64,000 bases of DNA from Patescibacteria group bacterium (GCA_040384805.1 JAZKIP010000001.1:51981-115980); one strand, 5' to 3'; shown: positions 3,233-52,445, numbered from the stretch's first letter. The notes: generated by a model from the letters alone, not told the origin. Numbers and translations: made by a program.

Positions 3233-3592
3233 TTAATAAGCGAGAAAAGTAAGGAAACCGATTATTATAAGTGTAAGCATTGCACGTATTACAAGTATTA
3301 ACAATATTATGGAAAGTATCAATAGGATGATATTTTTTGCGCTATTCTTATTTTTTGATTTCTTGTATATGGTAATGCCTTTACTGCAAATCATTGTGAT
3401 CCATATTGATACAATAACGCCTAAGAATATCAATATGATAAATCCGAGTTTGCCCGTAAGTATATATTTTCTTAGAAGGAAATATATATAACCATATCCG
3501 TGCAATACAAAAAATACAAAAAATATTTCTATCGCTATCAGCTGGTTTTGTTTCTTTTCAATTAAATTATCTCTACTAATGCTTTCTTCCAT
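3233..3592 (-). CDS. small polytopic membrane protein of unknown function inserted between atpA and atpG
   Basis: 119 aa with 3-4 predicted TM helices. ATG sits 3 nt after the atpA stop and the ORF ends 5 nt before the atpG start, which suggests translational coupling. Very AT-rich codon usage compared with its neighbours. Confidence 0.5.
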   Translation of the reverse strand: MEESISRDNLIEKKQNQLIAIEIFFVFFVLHGYGYIYFLLRKYILTGKLGFIILIFLGVIVSIWITMICSKGITIYKKSKNKNSAKNIILLILSIILLILVIRAMLTLIIIGFLTFLAY

Positions 3593-7866: not shown

Positions 7867-7916
7867 CTTAGGGTGGTAGCTTATTTCATTTTGCAACTCA
7901 CTGCCATGTAGCCTTA

Positions 7917-7953
7917 AAACACAAAAGACCCTTGAGGGTCTTTTGTGTTTTAA
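7917..7953. terminator. bidirectional rho-independent terminator
   Basis: aaaacacaaaagaccc-ttga-gggtcttttgtgtttt is a perfect 16-bp stem flanked by A/T runs on both strands; it lies between the tRNA-Ile and the convergent repeat-protein gene. Confidence 0.8.
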
Positions 7954-9034: not shown

Positions 9035-9271
9035 CTATTCTTCAACTCCTATACTATTGATAAGTTTCTGTATTTCTTTATATCGTCTTTTTATTCTGAT
9101 TTCCAATAAGAAATAGATAATATAAAATATAACGCCGATAATGCATATGATAAAACCGATTACCATAAAGCTCCTTTCTTTATTGAAAAAAACCAAAAAT
9201 ATGAAGATAGTACTTGAAGCTAGAGAAATAGATGTTAATATGAACAGAATAGTGCTTATTTTCTTTTCCAT
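9035..9271 (-). CDS. small two-TM membrane protein (hypothetical)
   Basis: 78 aa, strongly hydrophobic, AT-rich; has its own downstream hairpin. Confidence 0.35.
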   Translation of the reverse strand: MEKKISTILFILTSISLASSTIFIFLVFFNKERSFMVIGFIICIIGVIFYIIYFLLEIRIKRRYKEIQKLINSIGVEE

Positions 9272-13782: not shown

Positions 13783-13860
13783 GGGTGTGATAATAGCACG
13801 AAAATCTTAAAACAGCAACCACACATTTTCATTGCACAATTTGCTTTTTTAATAATGCAT

Positions 13861-13898
13861 ATGTAAACAATATGGACGATCGTCCATATTGTTTACAT
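13861..13898. repeat. 38-nt perfect palindrome in the rplY upstream / FAD-oxidase downstream spacer
   Basis: atgtaaacaatatggacgatcgtccatattgtttacat reads identically on both strands. Confidence 0.9.
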
Positions 13899-13918
13899 AT
13901 GAAGATTTTTTAATGATC

Positions 13919-16533: not shown

Positions 16534-16644
16534 GATCCTACTTGTCCCGTATGAAATTTTTGTTTACAAATGAGGTAAGGACAAGCATGATTAGCATAAT
16601 TAATTTAAATTTTACATAAAAAATGATGTAAAATTTCATGTGGG

Positions 16645-17649
16645 ATGGAAAAAACAGAAAAACAAATTGATTTTTTGGCAATAGGCGATCTTGTCGTCGA
16701 TGATTTTATCCGCCTCAAAGATGCCGAAGCGACCTGCGATCTTGATCAGGAAAACTGCAGGCTCTGTGTTCGCTTCGGCGACAAAGTTCCTTATGAATTT
16801 CATGAAGTTTTATATGCTGTCGGCAACAGCGGCAATGCGGCGGTTTCAGCATCGCGATTGGGCCTCTCCACTGCCCATCTTGCTATGGTTGGCGATGACG
16901 ATCTTGGCAAAAAATGCATTGAAGCCCAGAAAGAAGATAATATCGAAACGAGCTATATACAAATCGACCCGAAACTCTGGACCAACTATCATTATGTTCT
17001 CTGGTACGGGCCTGAACGGACGATTCTTGTGAATCACGCTCCCTACGAACGCCATCTTCCTGCGAATTTCATTGCTCCGCGATGGATTTATCTGACATCT
17101 TTGGGCGAGAACACGGAAGCTTTCCATCACGAAATAGCAGAATGGCTCAAGGATCATCCTGAAACGAAATTGGCATTTCAGCCCGGCACGTTCCAGATGA
17201 AGCTTGGTACTGAAAGATTGAAGGATATCTATGCAAACGCCGATATATTTTTCTGTAACATGGAAGAAGCACAGAGAATATTGAAAAATGGAGAGATTGA
17301 TCCGCAAAAACTAATGGACTCCCTTCACGATCTTGGTCCGAAGATCGTTATTATGACAAACGGGATCAAAGGTGCATATGCGCGGAAAGAAGACGGAAGC
17401 ATGTATTTTATTCCCGTCTATCCCCATGTGCCCGTTGAACGCACGGGAGCGGGAGATTCTTTCTCTTCAACAATCGCTTCATGTCTTGCTCTGGACATAT
17501 CGCTTGAGGATGCGCTTCTGTGGGCGCCAATCAATGCTATGTCGGTAACACAATTTACCGGAGCTCAAAAGGGCCTCTTATCTGGAGAGAAAATCAAAGA
17601 ATACTTGCAAAAGGCACCGGAAGATTATAAAATTAAAAAAATAAACTAA
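16645..17649 (+). CDS. PfkB-family carbohydrate kinase (ribokinase / adenosine kinase-like)
   Basis: 334 aa; N-terminal GG dipeptide region; C-terminal anion-hole motif TGAGDSFSS typical of the PfkB family. Confidence 0.75.
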   Translation: MEKTEKQIDFLAIGDLVVDDFIRLKDAEATCDLDQENCRLCVRFGDKVPYEFHEVLYAVGNSGNAAVSASRLGLSTAHLAMVGDDDLGKKCIEAQKEDNIETSYIQIDPKLWTNYHYVLWYGPERTILVNHAPYERHLPANFIAPRWIYLTSLGENTEAFHHEIAEWLKDHPETKLAFQPGTFQMKLGTERLKDIYANADIFFCNMEEAQRILKNGEIDPQKLMDSLHDLGPKIVIMTNGIKGAYARKEDGSMYFIPVYPHVPVERTGAGDSFSSTIASCLALDISLEDALLWAPINAMSVTQFTGAQKGLLSGEKIKEYLQKAPEDYKIKKIN

Positions 17650-17999
17650 CCCGCTATGAAAAATAACTTCGGAAACCTAAACCGCATTGAACAAAGCAAT
17701 GTAACCCAAATAGAAAAAGAAAGAAAAACAGGAGAAAAACTCGACGAACTCAATGAACTTTTAAACGAAAAGAGAAAATTGGATTCACAATGGGTTGATA
17801 CTGTTATCAACAAATCTGATTCGGAGAATTGGGAAGAGTAAAGATCTAGTGTTAATCCAACCATACAAAATGCTTCTTTGCATAATAAGGTGGTTGAAAT
17901 TGACGCTAAAATTACCCAGATCAAGGCAGAACTCCAAGAGTTAACAAAATAGTTTTTCTTTTTTTATTTACTACTAGATAGTCTGTGGGATCCCATGGA

Positions 18000-19287: not shown

Positions 19288-20157
19288 TTATTCATGTTCG
19301 CTTTTGATTCGTCCGCCTAAAGTACGCAATTCTTTGAGTGCCATATCCCCCTGTTCCTTGTCGGGAGGCGTGCCATGCCAGTGATAATCGCGTTCAAATT
19401 CCTTTACTCCCTTGCCGGGAATTGTGATAGCGATAATGACCGAGGGCTTGTCAAAAACCGCTTTTGCGCGGTTGATTGCGTTGTTGATTTCGTCGAAATT
19501 ATGACCGTCGATTTCCTGTACATGCCATCCGAACTGCGCGTATTTTTCCCCGAGGTCCCCGAGCGGCATAATATCTTCGGTATATCCGTCGATCTGGATG
19601 TTGTTGCGGTCGACGATCGCGATCAGCTTATGCAGTTTTTCCTTTCCCCCGAGAAGTATAGCTTCCCATGTATTGCCTTCGTCATGTTCGCCATCTGATA
19701 GAAGCGCATAGATCGTTTTGTCCGATACTTTTCCATTGTCGATCCGGTCAGCTAAAGCCATGCCGCATGCCTGAGAAAGTCCCGAACCCAAAGGACCTGA
19801 TGAGTTTTCAAGCCAGGGCATGTATTCGCGATGCGGGTGGCCCTGGAGGCGCGAGCCGAACTTTCGAAGCGTCTGCAATTCTTCAATGGGCATATATCCG
19901 GCATGAGCCATCGTCGCGTACAGAACGGGGCAAATGTGGCCATTTGAAAGAACGAGCCTGTCGCGATCTTTCCAGTCGGGGCGATTAGGATCATGTCGCA
20001 AGGCATGAAAGTACAAGAGCGTAAATATATCAGTCATACCCAAAGGCCCTGCCGTATGTCCGCTCTTAGCTTCGACGAGCATAGAAATAATACTCTCTCG
20101 AATACTGTTTGCCCGCAAAGCAAGACTCTTTATTTTTTCATCGGTTAGATTTTCCAT
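19288..20157 (-). CDS. transketolase, N-terminal subunit (thiamine-diphosphate binding)
   Basis: 289 aa; GH..S..GPLGMG motif (SGHTAGPLGMT); TPP-binding GDG...EG region (SDGEHDEGNTWEA). Confidence 0.85.
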   Translation of the reverse strand: MENLTDEKIKSLALRANSIRESIISMLVEAKSGHTAGPLGMTDIFTLLYFHALRHDPNRPDWKDRDRLVLSNGHICPVLYATMAHAGYMPIEELQTLRKFGSRLQGHPHREYMPWLENSSGPLGSGLSQACGMALADRIDNGKVSDKTIYALLSDGEHDEGNTWEAILLGGKEKLHKLIAIVDRNNIQIDGYTEDIMPLGDLGEKYAQFGWHVQEIDGHNFDEINNAINRAKAVFDKPSVIIAITIPGKGVKEFERDYHWHGTPPDKEQGDMALKELRTLGGRIKSEHE

Positions 20158-20158
20158 T

Positions 20159-20848
20159 TTATAAATTTTCCAATTCTTTCATCGTTTCGCGGATGTCATA
20201 ACTATGCATCAAAGCTGATCCGACGACGAGTCGGTTTGCCCCCGCTGCAACGAGGATGGGCGCAGTTGTTTCATTGACGCTTCCATCTATACTTATTATA
20301 AGCTCTGGATACGCATGCCGCAATGAGCGCACTTGGTCGAGTACTCTTTCGTCGAATGGCTCTCCTTGTTCTCCGATACGCTCGATTCCCATGCACTGGA
20401 CAAAGTCAACATGCGGAATGATGGACTTTGCGTTTTCGATTGGGGTCGTTGTGTTGAGAGCTATACCTATCTGGATATTTTCACGCGTATACATGTCGAT
20501 ACCTTCGAGGAATTCTCGAAACTCTTCAATAGGGCCTTCGGCTTCTAGATGAAAGACAATTCTCCGCGGGCCGAGCCGGACGAAAAATTCGAATTGCTTA
20601 TGAGCGTTTACAACCATGAGATCGAACTCGAAATCAAGGGTGTCCCAATACGGCAGACCCTCCTCTTCGTTGAGGATTCTCTCGACGCTTGCTTCGTCGT
20701 GCGGATTCATCGGCCATGAAAGAGTCGGGACGAATTTTCCGTCACAGATATCGATCTGAACCGTTCGTGCAACGGAAACAACGCGCGCTAGTTTCTCACG
20801 CATGCTCTCGTAATTTTCTTCTAAAATGGCGGGAATAACTTCGGTCAT
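20159..20848 (-). CDS. rpe: ribulose-phosphate 3-epimerase
   Basis: 229 aa TIM-barrel; ...IPAILEEN...DICDGKFVP...HVDFVQCMGI... pattern of Rpe. Confidence 0.8.
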   Translation of the reverse strand: MTEVIPAILEENYESMREKLARVVSVARTVQIDICDGKFVPTLSWPMNPHDEASVERILNEEEGLPYWDTLDFEFDLMVVNAHKQFEFFVRLGPRRIVFHLEAEGPIEEFREFLEGIDMYTRENIQIGIALNTTTPIENAKSIIPHVDFVQCMGIERIGEQGEPFDERVLDQVRSLRHAYPELIISIDGSVNETTAPILVAAGANRLVVGSALMHSYDIRETMKELENL

Positions 20849-20858
20849 ATTATAAATA

Positions 20859-21590
20859 CTAGTGAATAAGAGTAGCTATAAGGATAAAGACGGGAAGAAG
20901 TATTAAAAAGATAATTATATCAATCCAATTTCTCTTCTTTAATATATGAAATAGATATATGATGATGCCGATGTTAAAAATAATCGGCAGTATAAAAATT
21001 ATGGGAGATGTCGGCTCTGTCATACAGCACATCTCCTGTCCTCTTCTTAAATTTATTATTAGCTTTAATACAAGAATAGCCAAGATAGGGAAATAAAAAA
21101 GTATATTAAAGAAAATCAAACTCTCATATACTTTTTTCATTAATTTCTTTTCCGGTTCTAGTTTTTTAATGCGTTGTACATGGCGATCATCAGAAGAGAA
21201 CTTTGTTTCAAGAAATACCCTTACCGCGTCTTTTGCTTCCTGTTCGGTTGCAAACCGTGCGCCGAGTGAAAGAACATTGGCATCGTTGTGCTCACGGGAT
21301 ATTCGAACGATATCCAAAGAACCACCATAATATTCCGTAGCTCGAACCCCCGGAATCTTATTAGCCGCCATAGCCTCTCCTTGGCCGCTTCCTCCAATGA
21401 CGATTCCCCTGCTGTCGGGATTATTCGCGACTGCTTGAGCCGTTGGAATTATAAAGTCAGGATAATCATCCGTTTCATTGTATTGAAATGCTCCATTGTC
21501 ATATGTTGTATATCCGAGCTCGTTCAAATAATTTTTGAGTTTCTCCTTTAATTCATATCCTGCATGGTCTGTGCCAATATAGACTTTCAT
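20859..21590 (-). CDS. rpiB: ribose-5-phosphate isomerase B fused to a C-terminal ~90-aa membrane domain
   Basis: N-terminal 150 aa MKVYIGTDHAGYELK...GGSGQGEAMAANK... is RpiB/LacAB family. The reading frame continues without a stop into 2-3 predicted TM helices (AT-rich DNA). Confidence 0.75.
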   Translation of the reverse strand: MKVYIGTDHAGYELKEKLKNYLNELGYTTYDNGAFQYNETDDYPDFIIPTAQAVANNPDSRGIVIGGSGQGEAMAANKIPGVRATEYYGGSLDIVRISREHNDANVLSLGARFATEQEAKDAVRVFLETKFSSDDRHVQRIKKLEPEKKLMKKVYESLIFFNILFYFPILAILVLKLIINLRRGQEMCCMTEPTSPIIFILPIIFNIGIIIYLFHILKKRNWIDIIIFLILLPVFILIATLIH

Positions 21591-21720
21591 GTGTCAATTA
21601 TATCATTTATTGAAAACATATTATAACCCCGCTAGTGAATTTTAATATTACACTGGCTTCTTAAGCAAGTGTGCTCTCATAAGCTTTATTAAAATCTACT
21701 ACGGGGTATAATAGGCTTAT

Positions 21721-22497
21721 ATGATTGCATTTTATAAATACCACGGCGCGGGAAACGACTTTATCATGATCGACAATCGGAATTGTCTTTTCGATCCGAC
21801 TGATACTGAGCGTATAAAGCTGATGTGTCATCGTCGCTTTGGAATGGGAGCAGACGGAATATTGTTGCTTCAAGACGCTCCGGGGTACGATTTCGGCATG
21901 GTCTATATCAATTCAGACGGGAGTATCGGATCGATGTGCGGCAACGGCGGCAGATGCATCGTTCATTTTGCGCATCATGTCTTGAGCATTATAAAAGACC
22001 CGGCAAAAGTTGTATTCGAAGCTGTAGACGGAGTTCATCATGCAGAAATAAAAGACGACGAAGTCAGATTAAAAATGAGAGACATTAAGGAAATCGGAAT
22101 ACGCAACGATCTTCCCTTCATCCGTCAGGGCACGACTCCTCATAATATTTTATTAGTTGAAGACCTCAAGGAATATCCGGTTTTTGAGACAGGCCGCACG
22201 ATAAGAAAAAGCGATCCTGACGGGGTCAATGTGAACTTCGTGCAAGAAATCGATGGTGTGTTCCATGTTCGTACATATGAGCGTGGGGTCGAGGACGAGA
22301 CATGGGCCTGCGGGACGGGAGCGACATCGGTTGCCATCGCAGTTCACGATATGGGCCTTTTAAAAGAAAATATATGCCGCATTACAATGCCGGGCGGCGA
22401 TCTTACTGTTGAATTTGAAAAAATGTCGGACGGAACATATCAGAATATATGGCTCACCGGATCGGCAAAATGCGTGTTTAAAGGAGAATGGGAATAA
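21721..22497 (+). CDS. dapF: diaminopimelate epimerase
   Basis: 258 aa; N-terminal YHGAGNDF motif and second catalytic Cys region (WACGTGATS). TATAAT about 10 nt upstream. Confidence 0.85.
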   Translation: MIAFYKYHGAGNDFIMIDNRNCLFDPTDTERIKLMCHRRFGMGADGILLLQDAPGYDFGMVYINSDGSIGSMCGNGGRCIVHFAHHVLSIIKDPAKVVFEAVDGVHHAEIKDDEVRLKMRDIKEIGIRNDLPFIRQGTTPHNILLVEDLKEYPVFETGRTIRKSDPDGVNVNFVQEIDGVFHVRTYERGVEDETWACGTGATSVAIAVHDMGLLKENICRITMPGGDLTVEFEKMSDGTYQNIWLTGSAKCVFKGEWE

Positions 22498-22550
22498 TTA
22501 TTTCCTATTTTAACAAAGCTCTATGCTTCCAGAAATTTACTTTATTGTAT

Positions 22551-22582
22551 TCCCAGTCTTGATGACTCGGTCAACAAGACTA
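22551..22582. terminator. hairpin between dapF and the convergent hypothetical gene
   Basis: gtcttgatgac-tcg-gtcaacaagac, an 11-bp stem with 1 mismatch; bidirectional position. Confidence 0.45.
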
Positions 22583-22619
22583 TTGGCATACCTCCATTCA
22601 GTATTTAAATTATATTAAT

Positions 22620-23078
22620 TTAAATACTTACATTCCAGTTGAGTTCTTTTTTGATTCTCTCTTGCAAGTCTTGCTTAAACTCCTCTATAAATTTAGGCGG
22701 ATAATATCCAAGCTTATTTCCTGTATTATGTTCGACTATCTTTATAGCTTCAGGAGAACGTAGCATGTATACATTCATATAATTTGTAATTCCTGATCTT
22801 AAAATATCTTCGGTAAGTAATCCTGATTTGTAAAGTAATTTCCAGCGATAGAGAACAGATTTGTAATCTAAGTCATTCTCAATGCGTTTCATCCCTTCTT
22901 CAACTAAATGCTTAATCGTTTTTTGGTCGATATCACTTATGTGGTAAGGTTTCGGTTGAATGCCATTTTCAATAATCCAAAGACCTAATCCTGTTGGATC
23001 TCCATTGTGCGATAAGTTTTGTAGCGCATGTCGTAGTGTATCTGGGGTATTGAATTTTGGCATCTCTACTGATTCCAT
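22620..23078 (-). CDS. hypothetical protein (no recognisable family)
   Basis: 152 aa, AT-rich islet between dapF and gap; no motif recognised by eye. Confidence 0.45.
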   Translation of the reverse strand: MESVEMPKFNTPDTLRHALQNLSHNGDPTGLGLWIIENGIQPKPYHISDIDQKTIKHLVEEGMKRIENDLDYKSVLYRWKLLYKSGLLTEDILRSGITNYMNVYMLRSPEAIKIVEHNTGNKLGYYPPKFIEEFKQDLQERIKKELNWNVSI

Positions 23079-23163
23079 CTTGATTATTTTATAGTTTTTC
23101 CTGTCTTTATCACATGATCAACGAGGGTATTGGTATAGTTTAATTCATTACGATACCACGTCA

Positions 23164-23496
23164 TTATTCCTTAATACTCCAAGCACTTTCCGGTGTTTTG
23201 ACCTTTTCAATTAACTCAGAAAACTCTTTGTTAATTGAATGACCGTCTTCTAAGGAAAGCAGTTGAACTATTCTCTTTCCAGCAGTACCGGAAGTTTGAG
23301 TAATAATATCTTTAACTTGAAATCGATCACCACCATCTCTTTGGATTATGATCTGACTCCTTAACCAGTCTTCGGAATATATTTCTGCGGTTTTTTCTTC
23401 TTTCAAATTATCAATGAGTTTGCCTTTGAGTTTTGATTCCTCTTCTGGCTTCTCATTTAATTTTTTAAGAAGATTACCTTTTAGTTCGCCTTCCAT
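23164..23496 (-). CDS. hypothetical protein (Lys/Glu-rich N-terminus, small beta-rich C-terminal domain)
   Basis: 110 aa; immediately downstream of gap, upstream of the 152-aa ORF; no family recognised. Confidence 0.45.
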   Translation of the reverse strand: MEGELKGNLLKKLNEKPEEESKLKGKLIDNLKEEKTAEIYSEDWLRSQIIIQRDGGDRFQVKDIITQTSGTAGKRIVQLLSLEDGHSINKEFSELIEKVKTPESAWSIKE

Positions 23497-23497
23497 A

Positions 23498-24526
23498 TTA
23501 CTTGATTGTATTACCTGTTTTAATAACGTGTTCGACTAAAGTATGCGTGTACCCCATTTCATTGTCATACCAGCCGAGAACTTTAACGAGATTGCCGCCG
23601 ATGACACGGGTCATGGCAAGATCTGCAATCGATGCATGCGATTCGCCGAGGATATCGCTTGATACGAGGGGCTCGTTGGTAACGGCAAAAAGTTTATTCC
23701 ATTTGTCACCTGCAGCTGCTTTCGTGAGAATGTCATTGACTTCTTCGGCTGTCGTATTTCTTTTTGCGATAAAGGTGACATCGACGATCGAACCTGCGGG
23801 CACTGGTACGCGGAGGGATATTCCATCAAAGAGTCCTTCAAGATCGGGAAAAGCTTTCGTTACGGCGATAGCAGCCCCTGTAGAGCTTGGAACGATATTC
23901 TGCGCGGCTGCGCGGCCTTCGCGGAGGTCTTTCTTGCTCGGACCGTCAACGAGGGCCTGCGAGGCCGTATATCCGTGCGTCGTTGAAAGCACCGCTTTCT
24001 CGATGCCGATTGCTTCATGTAATATGCCAATCAATGGAGAGACCGCATTTGTCGTACATGATGCATTAGATGTAATATCGCATGTGCCGAATTTATCTTC
24101 GTTGACTCCAAGGAGGATTGTCTCGCCAGGAGCTGTACCTTCTCCCTCTTTGGCGGGTGCCGAGATGACGACTTTCTTCGCGCCATCATCGATATGGAAT
24201 TTTGCTTTATCGTATGAGGTAAAGAGGCCGGTCGATTCGACAACGACATCGATATTAAGATCTTTCCATGGAAGTTTCGTCGTGTCTTTCTCGGAAATAA
24301 AATGAATCTGCTTTCCATCAACCCAGATGTCCTTGCCGTCATGTTTAATATCATGCTTCCATGTGCGGTAGACTGTGTCGTATTTAAGGAGATATGTAAG
24401 GCTGTCGAGTGACCCTAAGTCATTAACCGCGACGATCTCGATCTCAGGACGCTCCCATGCGATCTTTACGAACGCCCGGCCGATACGCCCAAACCCATTC
24501 ACTGCAACCCTGATTTTCTTTTCCAT
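23498..24526 (-). CDS. gap: glyceraldehyde-3-phosphate dehydrogenase
   Basis: MEKKIRVAVNGFGRIGR NAD-binding start; catalytic ...SNASCTTN... Start trimmed: the ORF-track N-terminal 45 aa are probably leader. Confidence 0.9.
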   Translation of the reverse strand: MEKKIRVAVNGFGRIGRAFVKIAWERPEIEIVAVNDLGSLDSLTYLLKYDTVYRTWKHDIKHDGKDIWVDGKQIHFISEKDTTKLPWKDLNIDVVVESTGLFTSYDKAKFHIDDGAKKVVISAPAKEGEGTAPGETILLGVNEDKFGTCDITSNASCTTNAVSPLIGILHEAIGIEKAVLSTTHGYTASQALVDGPSKKDLREGRAAAQNIVPSSTGAAIAVTKAFPDLEGLFDGISLRVPVPAGSIVDVTFIAKRNTTAEEVNDILTKAAAGDKWNKLFAVTNEPLVSSDILGESHASIADLAMTRVIGGNLVKVLGWYDNEMGYTHTLVEHVIKTGNTIK

Positions 24527-24718
24527 AATTGATGAAAGTATAATAAATAGTATAGGTATATTATAGCAGTTTGACCCTGAGAATAAAAGAAAAGCCCCAC
24601 TGTAGAAACAGCAGAGCGTAGCCCTCCCCTTACGGGATAAAATTGCTGGGCATATGAACATTTTGTCTCCTTGTAAATAACAAGGAAAAGAAGTTAGTGC
24701 TTAATATGAGTATAGCAT

Positions 24719-24949
24719 TTATCCCAAGTAAGTAAACCGTGGGCCTCTATAATCTTCCCTCTCTACATTCTCAAGGAACATATCAAGCGGTCGAGCCCAT
24801 ACTCTCCATCCATTGCTATTAAGATCCGTTTGTCTTTCATATACAACCATCCACTCCTCCGTTTCAGTATTCTTGGCAAGGGTAATAATCTTGTATGTAT
24901 CTCCTTTGAAATGCTTATATATCTGTCCCGGCTTAATATTATGTTCCAT
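24719..24949 (-). CDS. DUF1653-family small protein
   Basis: 76 aa; PGQIYKHFKGDTYKII...WMVVYE...GWRVWARP pattern recalled as characteristic of DUF1653. Confidence 0.55.
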   Translation of the reverse strand: MEHNIKPGQIYKHFKGDTYKIITLAKNTETEEWMVVYERQTDLNSNGWRVWARPLDMFLENVEREDYRGPRFTYLG

Positions 24950-24952
24950 GAT

Positions 24953-26443
24953 TTAAGAAATCAATTCTTTTAATAATTTAAGGACAGTCTGGGGATTTGC
25001 CGATCCATTGGTGTCCTTCATTATTTTCCCTACGAGTGACATGAGAGCATTTTCTTTGCCGCTTTTGTATGTTGCAACGACGGCAGGATTGGCGTCAATT
25101 ACTTTCTGCACGATTTCTGTGAGCGCTCCCTCGTCATTCTTTTGTAGGAGGTCTTTGTCTGTTGCGATTTTCCGGGGAGATATGTCCTCGTGAACGATCA
25201 TGGCAAGGATATCTTTTGCCGCGCGCGATGATATTTCACCGCCCGTTGCCATCATAATTAATTCGGCAAAGTTCTCCGCGCGTGGCATAGAAATATTCGG
25301 ATTATTCTTTTTAAGGCCCAGATAATCCGATGTAATATAGTTGGACGCGGTTTTGACCTTGTCGTTGTCTTTTAAGATTTCCGCAATATTTTCAAACCAG
25401 GCGCCGAGTTCGCGATCAACGATATATGTTTCCACGTCTTCGTCTTTGATTCCATAATCTGTCTTGTAGCGGTCGCGCTTTACTTGCGGAAGCTCCGGAA
25501 TGCTGCTGCGAAGTTTTTCAATATCAAACGCTTTCGATAGATACAGTTTCGGCAGATCAGGATCAGGGAAATAGCGGTAATCGTTGGCATTTTCTTTTGA
25601 CCGTTGAGAGAATGTGGATTGCTTGGCCTCATCCCAGCCGCGCGTTTCTTGTACGATCTCCGTACCGCGACCTCCATCCAAAAGATCGATCATGCGCTTT
25701 GTTTCGTATTCTGCGGCTCTTTCAACAGAGCGGAATGAATTGATGTTTTTAACTTCGACTTTCGTGCCAAGCGTATCAGGATCGGAAGATATGGAAATAT
25801 TGAGCTCAACTCTCATTTGTCCTTTGTCCATATTTGCTTCGGATACGCCAAGATATCGCAAAAGAAGCTGAAGTTCGCGGCCGAAATCCCCCGCTTCTTT
25901 CGCACTGTGGATGACCGGCTCGGTGACAAGTTCCATAAGAGGGACTCCTGCACGGTTGAAATCGACAAGGGAGTAACCTGCCTGTCCGGCAGGCAGGTTC
26001 CCCTTGTCGTGCTTACTGTTCGCCGTGTCTTCTTCAAGATGAATGCGGGTGATGGCGATGCCATTGAGCATGCCGCCCGAGACAATCGGATATTTATATT
26101 GGGAGATTTGATATGCTTTGGGAATATCAGGATAGAAATAATTCTTGCGGTCGAACTCGGTAAAGTCTGCGATGGTCGCTCCTAGAGCAAGACCTACCGT
26201 GATGACATTCTCGACAGCCTTCTTGTTGATGACAGGAAGGGTGCCGGGATGAGCCATGCAGACGGGGCAGATATTGATGTTAGGCTTCTCTTCGTCAGGA
26301 TTGTTCGCGCAACCGCAGAACATCTTAGATTTGGTATTGAGTTCGGCGTGAATTTCAAGGCCGATGGTTGTATGGTATCGATTCTCCATGTATTGATGAT
26401 TATAAGGCTCAATCGTCGAATTTCCAAATCTGCGAATATGCAT
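24953..26443 (-). CDS. gatB: Asp-tRNA(Asn)/Glu-tRNA(Gln) amidotransferase subunit B
   Basis: 496 aa; ...IGLEIHAELNTKSKMFCGC... and C-terminal GatB/YqeY domain. Confidence 0.9.
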   Translation of the reverse strand: MHIRRFGNSTIEPYNHQYMENRYHTTIGLEIHAELNTKSKMFCGCANNPDEEKPNINICPVCMAHPGTLPVINKKAVENVITVGLALGATIADFTEFDRKNYFYPDIPKAYQISQYKYPIVSGGMLNGIAITRIHLEEDTANSKHDKGNLPAGQAGYSLVDFNRAGVPLMELVTEPVIHSAKEAGDFGRELQLLLRYLGVSEANMDKGQMRVELNISISSDPDTLGTKVEVKNINSFRSVERAAEYETKRMIDLLDGGRGTEIVQETRGWDEAKQSTFSQRSKENANDYRYFPDPDLPKLYLSKAFDIEKLRSSIPELPQVKRDRYKTDYGIKDEDVETYIVDRELGAWFENIAEILKDNDKVKTASNYITSDYLGLKKNNPNISMPRAENFAELIMMATGGEISSRAAKDILAMIVHEDISPRKIATDKDLLQKNDEGALTEIVQKVIDANPAVVATYKSGKENALMSLVGKIMKDTNGSANPQTVLKLLKELIS

Positions 26444-40299: not shown

Positions 40300-40947
40300 A
40301 TGGCAGAGCCTATGCCATTTTTCACTAACGGGATGAACCCCATTGAGCGCCTCGCGGAATATTTTAAAGAATTTCCCGGTATCGGCGAGCGTCAGGCAAA
40401 GCGCTTTGTTTATTTTCTTCTTCGCAAAAATCCCCAGTATGTCAAAGATCTTGCCGATGCGGTTCTTATTCTTCGTGATTCCATTCATCAGTGCTCCTCC
40501 TGTTTTTTATTCTTCAAAGGGAATGCGGGAGAACTCTGCGACATATGCGGGAATCCCAAGACTGACTCGAGCACACTTATGATCGTAGAAAAGGATGCCG
40601 ATGTTGAAAGCATCAAAAAGAGCAAGATATATACCGGCAAATATTTCATATTAGGAGGTTTGGTGCCGATTGTAACAAAAGAGACTCCGACGTTCGTTCG
40701 GACAAAGGAATTAACAAGAACCATCGAAGAACGATCGAAAACGTCTGATCTTGCGGAAATTATTATTGCTTTGTCTCTCAATCCTCAAGGAGAACATACT
40801 GACATGTATGTGCGGGAACTTTTATCCCCGCTTGAAAAAAAATACGGGTTCAAGATCGTATCTCTTGGCCGAGGTCTCTCGACCGGTACGGAGCTTGAAT
40901 ACTCCGACAGCGAGACGATCAAGAACGCTTTGCGGAACAGGTCTTAA
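40300..40947 (+). CDS. recR: recombination protein RecR
   Basis: 215 aa; HhH N-terminus, C4 zinc finger CSSC...CDIC, Toprim domain. Confidence 0.85.
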   Translation: MAEPMPFFTNGMNPIERLAEYFKEFPGIGERQAKRFVYFLLRKNPQYVKDLADAVLILRDSIHQCSSCFLFFKGNAGELCDICGNPKTDSSTLMIVEKDADVESIKKSKIYTGKYFILGGLVPIVTKETPTFVRTKELTRTIEERSKTSDLAEIIIALSLNPQGEHTDMYVRELLSPLEKKYGFKIVSLGRGLSTGTELEYSDSETIKNALRNRS

Positions 40948-40953
40948 TAAAAT

Positions 40954-40976
40954 AAAACCGCGCACTGCGCGGTTTT
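40954..40976. terminator. bidirectional rho-independent terminator between recR and rplU
   Basis: aaaaccgcgca-ct-gcgcggtttt with T-run; the rplU stop overlaps its 3' edge. Confidence 0.75.
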
Positions 40977-41340
40977 ATTTTATTGCTGAGATTTTAACTT
41001 CTACGAACGGCTGTCGATGCCCGTTCTTTTTATGGTAGCGGCTTTTCTGCTTGTATTTAACAACGGTAACGGTCTTTGCTTTGCCTGACCGCTGAAATAG
41101 CGATTCAACGGATGCGGTAGGTATATACGGAGAACCGATAGTCGTATCGATTCCGTTATCGACGAGAAGCACCTTGTCGAAGATAATCTTATCGCCGAGA
41201 GCGAATTCTCCTTCGAGTTTTTCAACTTTAAGAACATCGCCAACGGCAACTTTGTATTGCTTGCCGCCTGTTTCAATTACCGCGAATTCCTTGGAGTCGG
41301 ATGCTACTTTCTTTTTCTGTGGTGTTGTTTTTGTTGCCAT
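40975..41340 (-). CDS. rplU: 50S ribosomal protein L21 (with N-terminal basic extension)
   Basis: 121 aa; ...FAVIETGGKQYKV..GDVLKVEKL... L21 core. No rpmA follows, because recR is convergent. Confidence 0.85.
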   Translation of the reverse strand: MATKTTPQKKKVASDSKEFAVIETGGKQYKVAVGDVLKVEKLEGEFALGDKIIFDKVLLVDNGIDTTIGSPYIPTASVESLFQRSGKAKTVTVVKYKQKSRYHKKNGHRQPFVEVKISAIK

Positions 41341-48407: not shown

Positions 48408-48493
48408 CTTCTTTTATACCAAGCGCTTCTTCTTGCCTGCGCCTGTGAAAAATAATAATACTGTATATCATAGCAGAATCTTCATATATGTAA

Positions 48494-48537
48494 ATAGAAA
48501 CAGCCCCGACAATAATAATTGTCGGGGCTGTTTCTAT
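48494..48537. terminator. strong hairpin terminator downstream of dnaJ
   Basis: atagaaacagccccgacaa-taataa-ttgtcggggctgtttctat, a perfect 19-bp stem ending 2 nt from the dnaJ stop. Confidence 0.7.
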
Positions 48538-48538
48538 T

Positions 48539-51862: not shown

Positions 51863-52405
51863 ATGAAGAAAAAACCCTCAATTCAAAAGGCAATTCTTAA
51901 AATTTTGGCCAATAAAAAAGCTATTTCCCTCGATACAATAAAAGACGCTGCAGAGAGCTCTCTTATGCCTGAAATTAAGAGTACTAAGGCAGAGTATGCA
52001 CTGACCCGTTCGATGAAGAACCTCGTTTCTGACGGCCTTGTAGAGGCTTTCAGTTCAGAGCACAAACAATACTTCCGCCTGACCCCCGAAGGCAAGCATA
52101 AGCTCAATAGTCTCACGCTCGATACGGATTCTAGCTTGGTTTCCACGCAATGGGACGGATATTGGCGTATCGTACTTCTTGATCTTCCTGAGAACCGCAA
52201 GAGCGAGCGCGAAGCCTTGCGCTACCTTCTGAAGAAAGCGGGATTCATCTGCGTGAAAAATTCAGTCTGGATATCCATGCACCCGTTCGAACATCTCTTT
52301 ACGAACATAAAGAAGGATCTAGGATTAACAACCGAACTTATCATTTTGGTTACCGACAAGCTTGACGATACAACCGAAGAATCATTTCTGGATTTGATGA
52401 AATAG
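51863..52405 (+). CDS. PaaX-like winged-helix transcriptional regulator
   Basis: 180 aa; N-terminal wHTH; central WDGYWRIVLLDLPENRKSEREALRYLLKKAGFICVKNSVWIS block resembling the PaaX middle domain. Divergent from dnaK, between grpE and dnaK. Confidence 0.45.
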   Translation: MKKKPSIQKAILKILANKKAISLDTIKDAAESSLMPEIKSTKAEYALTRSMKNLVSDGLVEAFSSEHKQYFRLTPEGKHKLNSLTLDTDSSLVSTQWDGYWRIVLLDLPENRKSEREALRYLLKKAGFICVKNSVWISMHPFEHLFTNIKKDLGLTTELIILVTDKLDDTTEESFLDLMK

Positions 52406-52445
52406 AAAAGAGCCCCGATCGGGGCTCTTTTCTATGAAATGAATT

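Follow-up and report, generated by a model that had tools for sequence, protein, structure and literature searches.

How two small genes of no recognisable family came to lie between housekeeping genes is the question raised by a 64,000-nucleotide (nt) stretch of DNA from a Patescibacteria group bacterium (GCA_040384805.1, JAZKIP010000001.1:51981-115980), which is referred to below, at its full length, as the window. The two open reading frames (ORFs), orfA and orfB, follow gap, the gene of glyceraldehyde-3-phosphate dehydrogenase (GAPDH), on the minus strand in the order gatB (26443..24953), a DUF1653 ORF (24949..24719), gap, orfA, an 85-nt spacer and orfB, beyond which lie the convergent dapF on the plus strand and then rpiB, rpe, tktN and tktC on the minus strand. 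An initial annotation of the sequence had regarded the pair as an accessory islet, perhaps a two-gene cassette with a toxin-antitoxin or abortive-infection function. The islet itself was confirmed by its foreign composition, by the variable content of the gap-rpiB slot and by flanking repeats that resemble attachment (att) sites and are tied to temperate phages, and the two-gene cassette was not. Degenerate copies of the gap 3' end, here called R1 and R2, together with the end of gap itself, bound both orfA and orfB on both sides, and the array gap-orfA-R1-orfB-R2 probably represents two att-flanked single-gene units stacked at the chromosomal attachment site (attB) of temperate phages. The features concerned are as follows.

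23498..24526, minus strand: gap, encoding GAPDH of 342 amino acids (aa) (Pfam Gp_dh_N, E 8e-36; Gp_dh_C, E 5e-50), with its start set at MEKKIRVAVNGFG, within a longer ORF (23498..24661)
23498..23581, minus strand: end of gap, the last 27 codons and stop, the resident attL-type copy of the repeat (nhmmer with a gap 3'-end model; alignments)
23164..23496, minus strand: orfA, an ORF of 110 aa with its ATG 1 nt past the gap TAA
23082..23166, minus strand: R1, a degenerate gap 3'-end copy occupying the 85-nt spacer (tblastn, nhmmer, Smith-Waterman, reading frame)
22620..23078, minus strand: orfB, an ORF of 152 aa with seven predicted helices
22528..22603, minus strand: R2, a second degenerate copy of the gap 3' end (its right two-thirds), directly 3' of orfB (tblastn, nhmmer, Smith-Waterman)
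22555..22628, no strand assigned: two stem-loops at the end of the array, in the convergent interval with dapF (folding against shuffles)
21721..22497, plus strand: dapF (DAP_epimerase, E 3e-40)

The repeats were searched for with the last 47 residues of GAPDH (tblastn) and with a DNA profile of gap 3' ends (nhmmer). R1 was retrieved by tblastn at 23167..23087 as 'IMTWYRNELNYTNTLVDHVIKTGKTIK' (E 5e-9) and by nhmmer (E 6e-11), with a Smith-Waterman z-score of 11.4 against shuffles; the corresponding values for R2 were 22599..22540, 'EWRYANSLVDRVIKTGNTIK' (E 3e-4), 5e-9 and 3e-15 by nhmmer, and a z-score of 10.5. Both correspond, in degenerate form, to the final ~27 codons of gap. R2 comprises the 76 nt right after orfB and ends in ...VIKTGNTIK*, and R1 forms an open mini-ORF of 26 codons (23164..23084), whose ATG overlaps the orfA stop codon (TAATG) and whose TAA lies 5 nt ahead of the orfB ATG. 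Among the 74 genes of the window, gap alone has a duplicated 3' end, and no further copy of the repeat was detected in the 64 kb.

Similar repeats were found in related loci (numbered with an L): after orfA and after a His_Phos_1 gene in L003/L004, on both sides of orfA in L005, and in L013 behind both an orfB-like gene and a membrane ORF of 100 aa. All copies end at a stop codon in the gap frame, with the ATG of the next ORF 1-24 nt on. The TAATG overlap of orfA and R1 recurs in L003 and L005, so that the junction (TAATGAC.TGGTATCGTAA) is common to three lineages, and a decayed form is present in L006, which suggests that the repeat has been with orfA from early on. The left arms of the R copies do not have the host Asp codon (WYDNE), and they carry TGAC or TGAT before TGGTA, as in the phage attachment site (attP) described below. 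They are 50-67% identical to host arms, whereas the host arms are mutually 73-93% identical; such unlikeness to all host gap ends is expected of attR, in which the left part of an element would be joined to the right part of the resident site. The copy of the gap end that is joined to orfA in L005 is 79-83% identical to the orfA-linked ends of the window and L003, compared with 64% to that locus's own gap end.

Two of these loci show further irregularities. L005 (5988-6100) has a complete gap with an unusual C-terminus (...LIQHVIKVGEKI*) and a second gap-end copy ~40 nt on, which a 1-nt deletion fuses in frame to orfA, giving a 141-aa product (P0006); this extra copy resembles a micro-remnant, without genes, of yet another insertion. 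In L013 (317-432, 735-777), an orfB-like gene, a repeat, the 100-aa membrane ORF and a second repeat follow one another; a crossover at the GGGTATAC breakpoint was considered there and rejected, the second repeat containing an internal deletion of ~40 nt between ATAC microhomologies.

An integrase-encoding element that uses the gap 3' end does exist. When IMG/VR was scanned for the conserved ...VxHVIKTG coding pattern, a 30.9-kb viral contig was hit that starts inside a gap gene of the candidate phyla radiation type, 75% identical to that of the window, and continues directly past the gap stop with an AAA_24 ATPase, replication protein O (Rep_O), RusA, a ParB-methylase and a portal protein with MuF. 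Eight related phage loci were retrieved with the portal protein as the query. Homologous phage genes directly follow gap, the attL arrangement, in L040/L031, L038 and L033 (the latter two begin in gap and continue into the same early genes), and no more of gap than its last 27 codons is present in L034 and L035. The contigs L034/L035/L041 have a tyrosine integrase (PF00589, E 1e-17), a 79-aa ORF and an 81-nt mimic of gap ahead of the early genes, with no gap gene upstream of the mimic, which is how an attP is arranged. The junction in L033 is host-like to the left of GGGTACAC; to the right it matches the L035 attP with a few mismatches, and this part includes a phage-supplied GAPDH C-terminus and a terminator. 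Because of this switch from host-like to attP-like sequence, we infer that the gap 3' end is the attB of phages in this Patescibacteria clade and that integration duplicates ~80 nt. To our knowledge, lysogeny in Patescibacteria is poorly characterised, and a full-text literature search found no published description of a gap-linked integration site in this group.

The same phages give their lysogens a different GAPDH C-terminus (e.g., ...GYTYTLVNHVIAAGRLV*), followed by an intrinsic terminator (L033, L035, L038, and L040). The far end of a lysogen contig (L043, 15414-21051) encodes a type III restriction-modification pair and, as judged by eye, a possible Fic-like gene. Tail, lysis and restriction-modification genes, and no integrase or repeat, were found in bases 8671-30206 of the lysogen contig IMGVR_UViG_3300025536_000189.

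A history that would connect the repeats with the phages can be proposed. As the phage loci show, attP carries an imitation (~81 nt) of the last 27 gap codons, and a crossover near GGGTAYAC rebuilds the GAPDH C-terminus from phage DNA; a further copy of the gap end (attR) would then remain beyond the inserted element. The window array is probably the outcome of two such events, with all but one promoterless ORF now missing between the att copies; the orfA unit, nearest gap, would be the newer one, and the orfB unit beyond it the older. Each unit consists of one ORF with no match to Phage_integrase or any other family, and tblastn of the 64-kb window detected no integrase, either inside or outside the array. 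The units are either decayed elements comparable to cis-mobilizable elements (CIMEs) or miniature integrase-dependent cassettes. The anatomy suggests that they ride on gap by co-transcription, gap being the likely source of both transcription and translation of the array, and that translation is probably relayed by re-initiation, first at orfA, 1 nt past the gap stop, then at the R1 mini-ORF and finally at orfB. Hairpins that have evolved in and beside R2 would end the expression unit.

These hairpins had been noticed in the initial annotation, which was right about a hairpin and an AT palindrome and slightly off in their coordinates. The palindrome (22600-22628) is perfect and AT-only, with arms of 13 nt and a loop of 3 nt, and overlaps the orfB stop codon, and a 12-bp hairpin (22555-22581) is formed within R2. 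Folding jointly at -18.4 kcal/mol (z = -6.5 versus shuffles), the two are probably a terminator or an RNA-end structure. No Rfam match was found in 20000-26000, and a promoter/terminator consensus scan gave sites no commoner than in shuffles. At ~12 places, the window has a perfect hairpin whose stem reaches 11 bp or more, the expectation from shuffles being 0.25; they have stems of 11-21 bp and stand at gene ends, such as 846-877, 7914-7953, 13858-13901, 40946-40984, 48493-48538 and 52402-52435, and are presumably terminators. AT-rich stems like that of 22600-22628 are present in two other hairpins, one mostly AT (846-877) and one almost all AT (16607-16636).

Composition and comparison with relatives bear on where the two genes came from. 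The description of two co-oriented ORFs of 110 and 152 aa, 85 nt apart in a distinct AT-rich segment, proved accurate: with 33.7% GC, 22498-23497 is the lowest 1-kb portion of the window (mean 44.6%, sd 3.3%), the GC content at third codon positions (GC3) of orfA (0.27) is the lowest among the 74 window ORFs (mean 0.459, sd 0.07), and among those of 150 aa or more orfB ranks lowest (0.30). The GC content of orfA remains at 0.32-0.36 across hosts of 0.33-0.45 GC. Between lineages, orfA is 85-89% identical, compared with 78-81% for gap and 45-55% for rpe of the same lineages, and tktN, gatB and rpiB are likewise less alike; between the window and L003, the proportion of synonymous differences (pS) is 0.46 in orfA versus 0.79-0.83 in the flanking genes. 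The composition and the excess identity of orfA may be taken as independent signs of a horizontal origin.

As to presence or absence in relatives, which the initial annotation had proposed to compare, the content of the slot varies, whereas the position of orfA is constant wherever it occurs. Eleven distinct orfA-bearing arrangements were distinguished (L003/4, L005, L006-8, L009, L010, L019/20, L021, L022/23, two listed without DNA, and the window), and in all of them orfA lies immediately 3' of gap, often with a spacing of 1 nt. The stretch between orfA and rpiB is different in each case, being empty or occupied by a 96-aa ORF, a His_Phos_1 gene, an 85-aa ORF or four small ORFs, and in the window by orfB and dapF. 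The gap loci of L001, L012 and the phage hosts do not have orfA. In L001/L011 and in a genome of Candidatus Nomurabacteria (L012), gap is followed at once by a close relative of orfB (46-61% identical), with orfA missing; in L012, the GC3 of the orfB-like gene is 0.29 versus 0.60 in the flanking genes. More distant relatives adjoin pth or LemA or lie near copper-resistance genes (L014, L015, and L018); those at L015 6001-6477 and L018 4085-4552 start 6-7 nt past pth and LemA, respectively, with GC3 below that of their neighbours, which suggests that the orfB family moves between operons by a route other than insertion at gap.

The interval between gatB and gap is a second variable slot: it measures 4 nt in L003, has room for three small ORFs in L005 and contains, in L012, a 117-aa ORF on the opposite strand. 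In the window, it holds the DUF1653 gene (24719-24949, minus strand; E 6e-22), 3 nt past gatB and 192 nt before gap, and in L003 the DUF1653 gene sits after tktC instead. As for dapF, which is opposite in orientation between the array and rpiB, its composition is host-like (GC3 0.47), and it is absent from the gap-rpiB position in all relatives examined.

Both orfA and orfB are real genes. For orfA, this follows from 14 clusters of homologues at 60-93% identity, 24 invariant columns (including the polar residues R53, D54, D84, and H86) and a nonsynonymous divergence (dN) of 0.06-0.08, below that of gap, with the synonymous divergence (dS) near saturation. For orfB, it follows from the family: a search of 5.8 billion clusters gave a single close relative, and an exhaustive profile search gave 17 further members besides the window orfB, all of ~150 aa and from Patescibacteria (one spurious 1707-aa repeat protein was left out of the count). 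Broad orfB alignments were too diverse to retrieve loci, and a narrower one retrieved L011-L013 only. That the proteins are of no known family was borne out, with nothing below E 0.01 in PADLOC, Pfam, PHROGs and NCBIfam and no match to PDB sequences.

Structure prediction, also proposed in the initial annotation with an eye to the C-terminal part of orfA, gave a fold there and little for orfB. According to AlphaFold, the N-terminus of orfA is Lys/Glu-rich and disordered, with two xLKGxLxxxL repeats, and residues 40-110 form a small SH3/Tudor-like beta-barrel and a helix (predicted local distance difference test score 85-92). The nearest small barrels listed are SH3-Tudor-like, namely DUF1653 (PDB 3be3) and the N-terminal domain of CarD (PDB 4l5g), and among the weak structure matches in BFVD several are phage DUF1653 proteins. 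No DUF1653 (PF07866) match was obtained at E up to 1 in 15 orfA family members, and hhalign gave no sequence link to the window's own DUF1653 protein (probability 0.4%). The all-alpha model of orfB has seven helices, moderate confidence and only generic structural neighbours. The invariant columns of the orfB family are the initiator Met and G86, and the invariance of G86 alone besides Met argues against an enzyme. A role of either protein towards phage and host, of the lysogenic-conversion type, or towards GAPDH is a guess.

Several observations weigh against the proposed history of two att-flanked units at a phage attB. The likeness of the R left arms to attP is modest (60-70%), the R1-type left arm has no match in IMG/VR, and neither the 392 kb of related phage loci nor the IMG/VR scans gave a homologue of orfA or orfB, so that cargo and phage are linked by att-site resemblance only. 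An excised circle, an empty site and the attR of a complete lysogen were not seen, and the lysogen contig ends before the integrase. In L019, L021 and L022, no repeat is detectable after orfA, which is followed right away by a terminator. The distant orfB relatives (L014, L015, and L018) show no duplicated 3' end of the upstream gene (pth, LemA). Finally, the strong purifying selection on orfA would also fit a gap partner that has long been resident and vertically inherited.

A bolder version of this history takes the orfA unit (a 330-nt ORF and a gap mimic of ~81 nt) as a functioning mini mobile cassette that borrows phage integrases and acts on phage or GAPDH. Such a cassette would enter the gap 3' end, bring its own GAPDH C-terminus and be expressed by re-initiation after gap. 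We consider this a rather doubtful possibility. If it were true, Patescibacteria would have an integron-like gene capture built on a phage attachment site, and the conserved orfA product might, for example, block further integration or superinfection, or act on GAPDH.

The main rival reading, which we consider unlikely, makes orfA an operon partner of GAPDH that is specific to the clade and passed on vertically, for instance a regulator or adaptor comparable to CP12 (a small GAPDH-binding protein), in which case only orfB and the other slot genes would be mobile and the repeats would be by-products of later insertions downstream of orfA. The conserved synteny gatB-gap-orfA-rpiB-rpe-tkt was in fact read at first as that of a core-operon gene, and this reading was dropped once the gap-end repeats had been found. 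What speaks for a vertical orfA is its position directly past gap, often at 1 nt, in all 11 arrangements that have it, the intrinsic terminator after orfA in L021, L022 and L006, which makes a clean gap-orfA dicistron, a dN below that of gap, and the 24 invariant columns, R53, D54, D84 and H86 among them. It is opposed by the lowest GC3 of the window and a GC content that hardly follows that of the hosts, by the gap loci without orfA (L001, L012, and the phage hosts), by the orfA-R1 junction shared among three lineages and decayed in L006, and by L005, where the gap end that accompanies orfA is of the orfA type and unlike the resident one. The initial annotation had set its islet against conserved core genes of known fold at one place in all relatives, and orfA, in contrast to orfB, comes halfway to that description, always occupying the same place but with a narrow distribution and a generic fold only.

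We regard as highly improbable a dedicated, phage-independent integron-like cassette system with a recombination site that mimics the gap end. In favour of such a system, every unit has a single promoterless ORF and a 3' repeat like a recombination site, all units point the same way downstream of a common promoter, and R types and ORFs appear reassorted, one and the same R type following orfA in the window and, in L013, an orfB-like gene. However, the repeats do not fold as attC-like hairpins: the DNA folding z-score is about 0 in four out of five copies (+0.7 to -0.05 for the window R1, L003, and L005; -2.4 for L013), and R2 of the window alone folds strongly, owing to lineage-specific hairpins. 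In addition, no intI-like gene, attI or Pc promoter was met beside any array, gap being the upstream neighbour in all loci, and the repeats are accounted for by the phage integrase and its matching attP. That orfA and orfB form a toxin-antitoxin, abortive-infection or other two-component module is hardly credible, since they occur together in no other locus examined (orfA without orfB in 11 distinct arrangements; orfB-like genes without orfA in L001, L012, L014, L015, and L018), which rules out an obligate pair, and since each is flanked by its own repeat, neither matches PADLOC, Pfam or PHROG models of toxin-antitoxin or defence proteins, and orfB, with one invariant residue besides Met, is not enzyme-like; the two proteins are independent cargo rather than partners.

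Other small AT-rich ORFs are wedged into housekeeping operons of the window and seem to be common in this genome. The rpiB ORF (20859..21590, minus strand) matches Pfam RpiB at residues 3-144 and continues in frame with a hydrophobic tail of ~90 residues (20859-21140), which has 28% GC (GC3 0.34) versus 43% in the RpiB core and seems to be an AT-rich membrane ORF ('MKKVYESLIFF...') fused by stop loss, or an inserted piece. Between atpA and atpG, a 119-aa membrane ORF (3233-3592, minus strand; 28% GC, GC3 0.30) gave no family match. More small ORFs of low GC3 are present at 595-828, 9035-9271 and 17646-17924; an atpD fragment suspected at 9035-9271 was rejected as a chance match in a small membrane ORF. 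None of these other small AT-rich ORFs has a duplicated 3' end of the upstream gene.

For temperate phages of Patescibacteria, these findings name a concrete attB (the gap 3' end), attP and integrase. They also show that site-specific insertion rather than operon membership can underlie the conserved synteny of a small unknown gene with the housekeeping gene before it; in reduced genomes, guilt-by-association annotation should be used with caution on this account. A search rule for mobile cargo in metagenome-assembled genomes that carry no recognisable integrase may be derived as well, namely to look downstream of a gene for degenerate copies of its last 80 nt. Being more conserved than GAPDH, orfA is a candidate for expression.

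Several known systems resemble the array in part, and the nearest of those described are the CIMEs of streptococci and the prophages at the icd 3' end. In E. coli, e14 and phage 21 integrate into the 3' end of icd, and an attP with a copy of the gene end keeps the gene intact. The gap phages similarly have an attP that copies the gene end, with the pseudo-end displaced to the other junction; unlike the icd case, the prophage in the window is gone, single ORFs lie between the att copies, and two events are stacked. In the islands of Dehalococcoides at ssrA, and in tRNA-targeting islands, the 3' end of one gene is reused and arrays are split by direct repeats. Tandem genomic islands at ssrA in Dehalococcoides are described in one report (PMC3146451). 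The gap array differs from the ssrA islands in targeting a protein-coding gene, in its coding repeat of ~80 nt and in units of a single small ORF.

With integron cassettes, the array shares one promoterless ORF and one site per unit, the same orientation and expression from upstream, whereas it has no attC hairpin and no adjacent intI, attI or Pc, and its site mimics coding sequence. Another likeness is with CIMEs of streptococci, which accrete in tandem at the 3' ends of fda, rpsI and rpmG in the ICESt1/ICESt3 family and include gene-less 'microCIME' remnants (PMC7563491). In both cases, the units are flanked by att sites that stem from a housekeeping gene's 3' end (fda is glycolytic, as is gap), do not have an integrase of their own and are stacked beside the target gene, and the L005 remnant may be compared with a microCIME. 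Unlike in CIMEs, the integrase-bearing partner here would be a phage rather than an integrative and conjugative element (ICE) or an integrative and mobilizable element (IME). The units are 0.41 and 0.55 kb long with one ORF each, in contrast to 1.2-13 kb in classical CIMEs, they abut a stop codon and seem to be translationally coupled to the target gene, and their host is a Patescibacterium.

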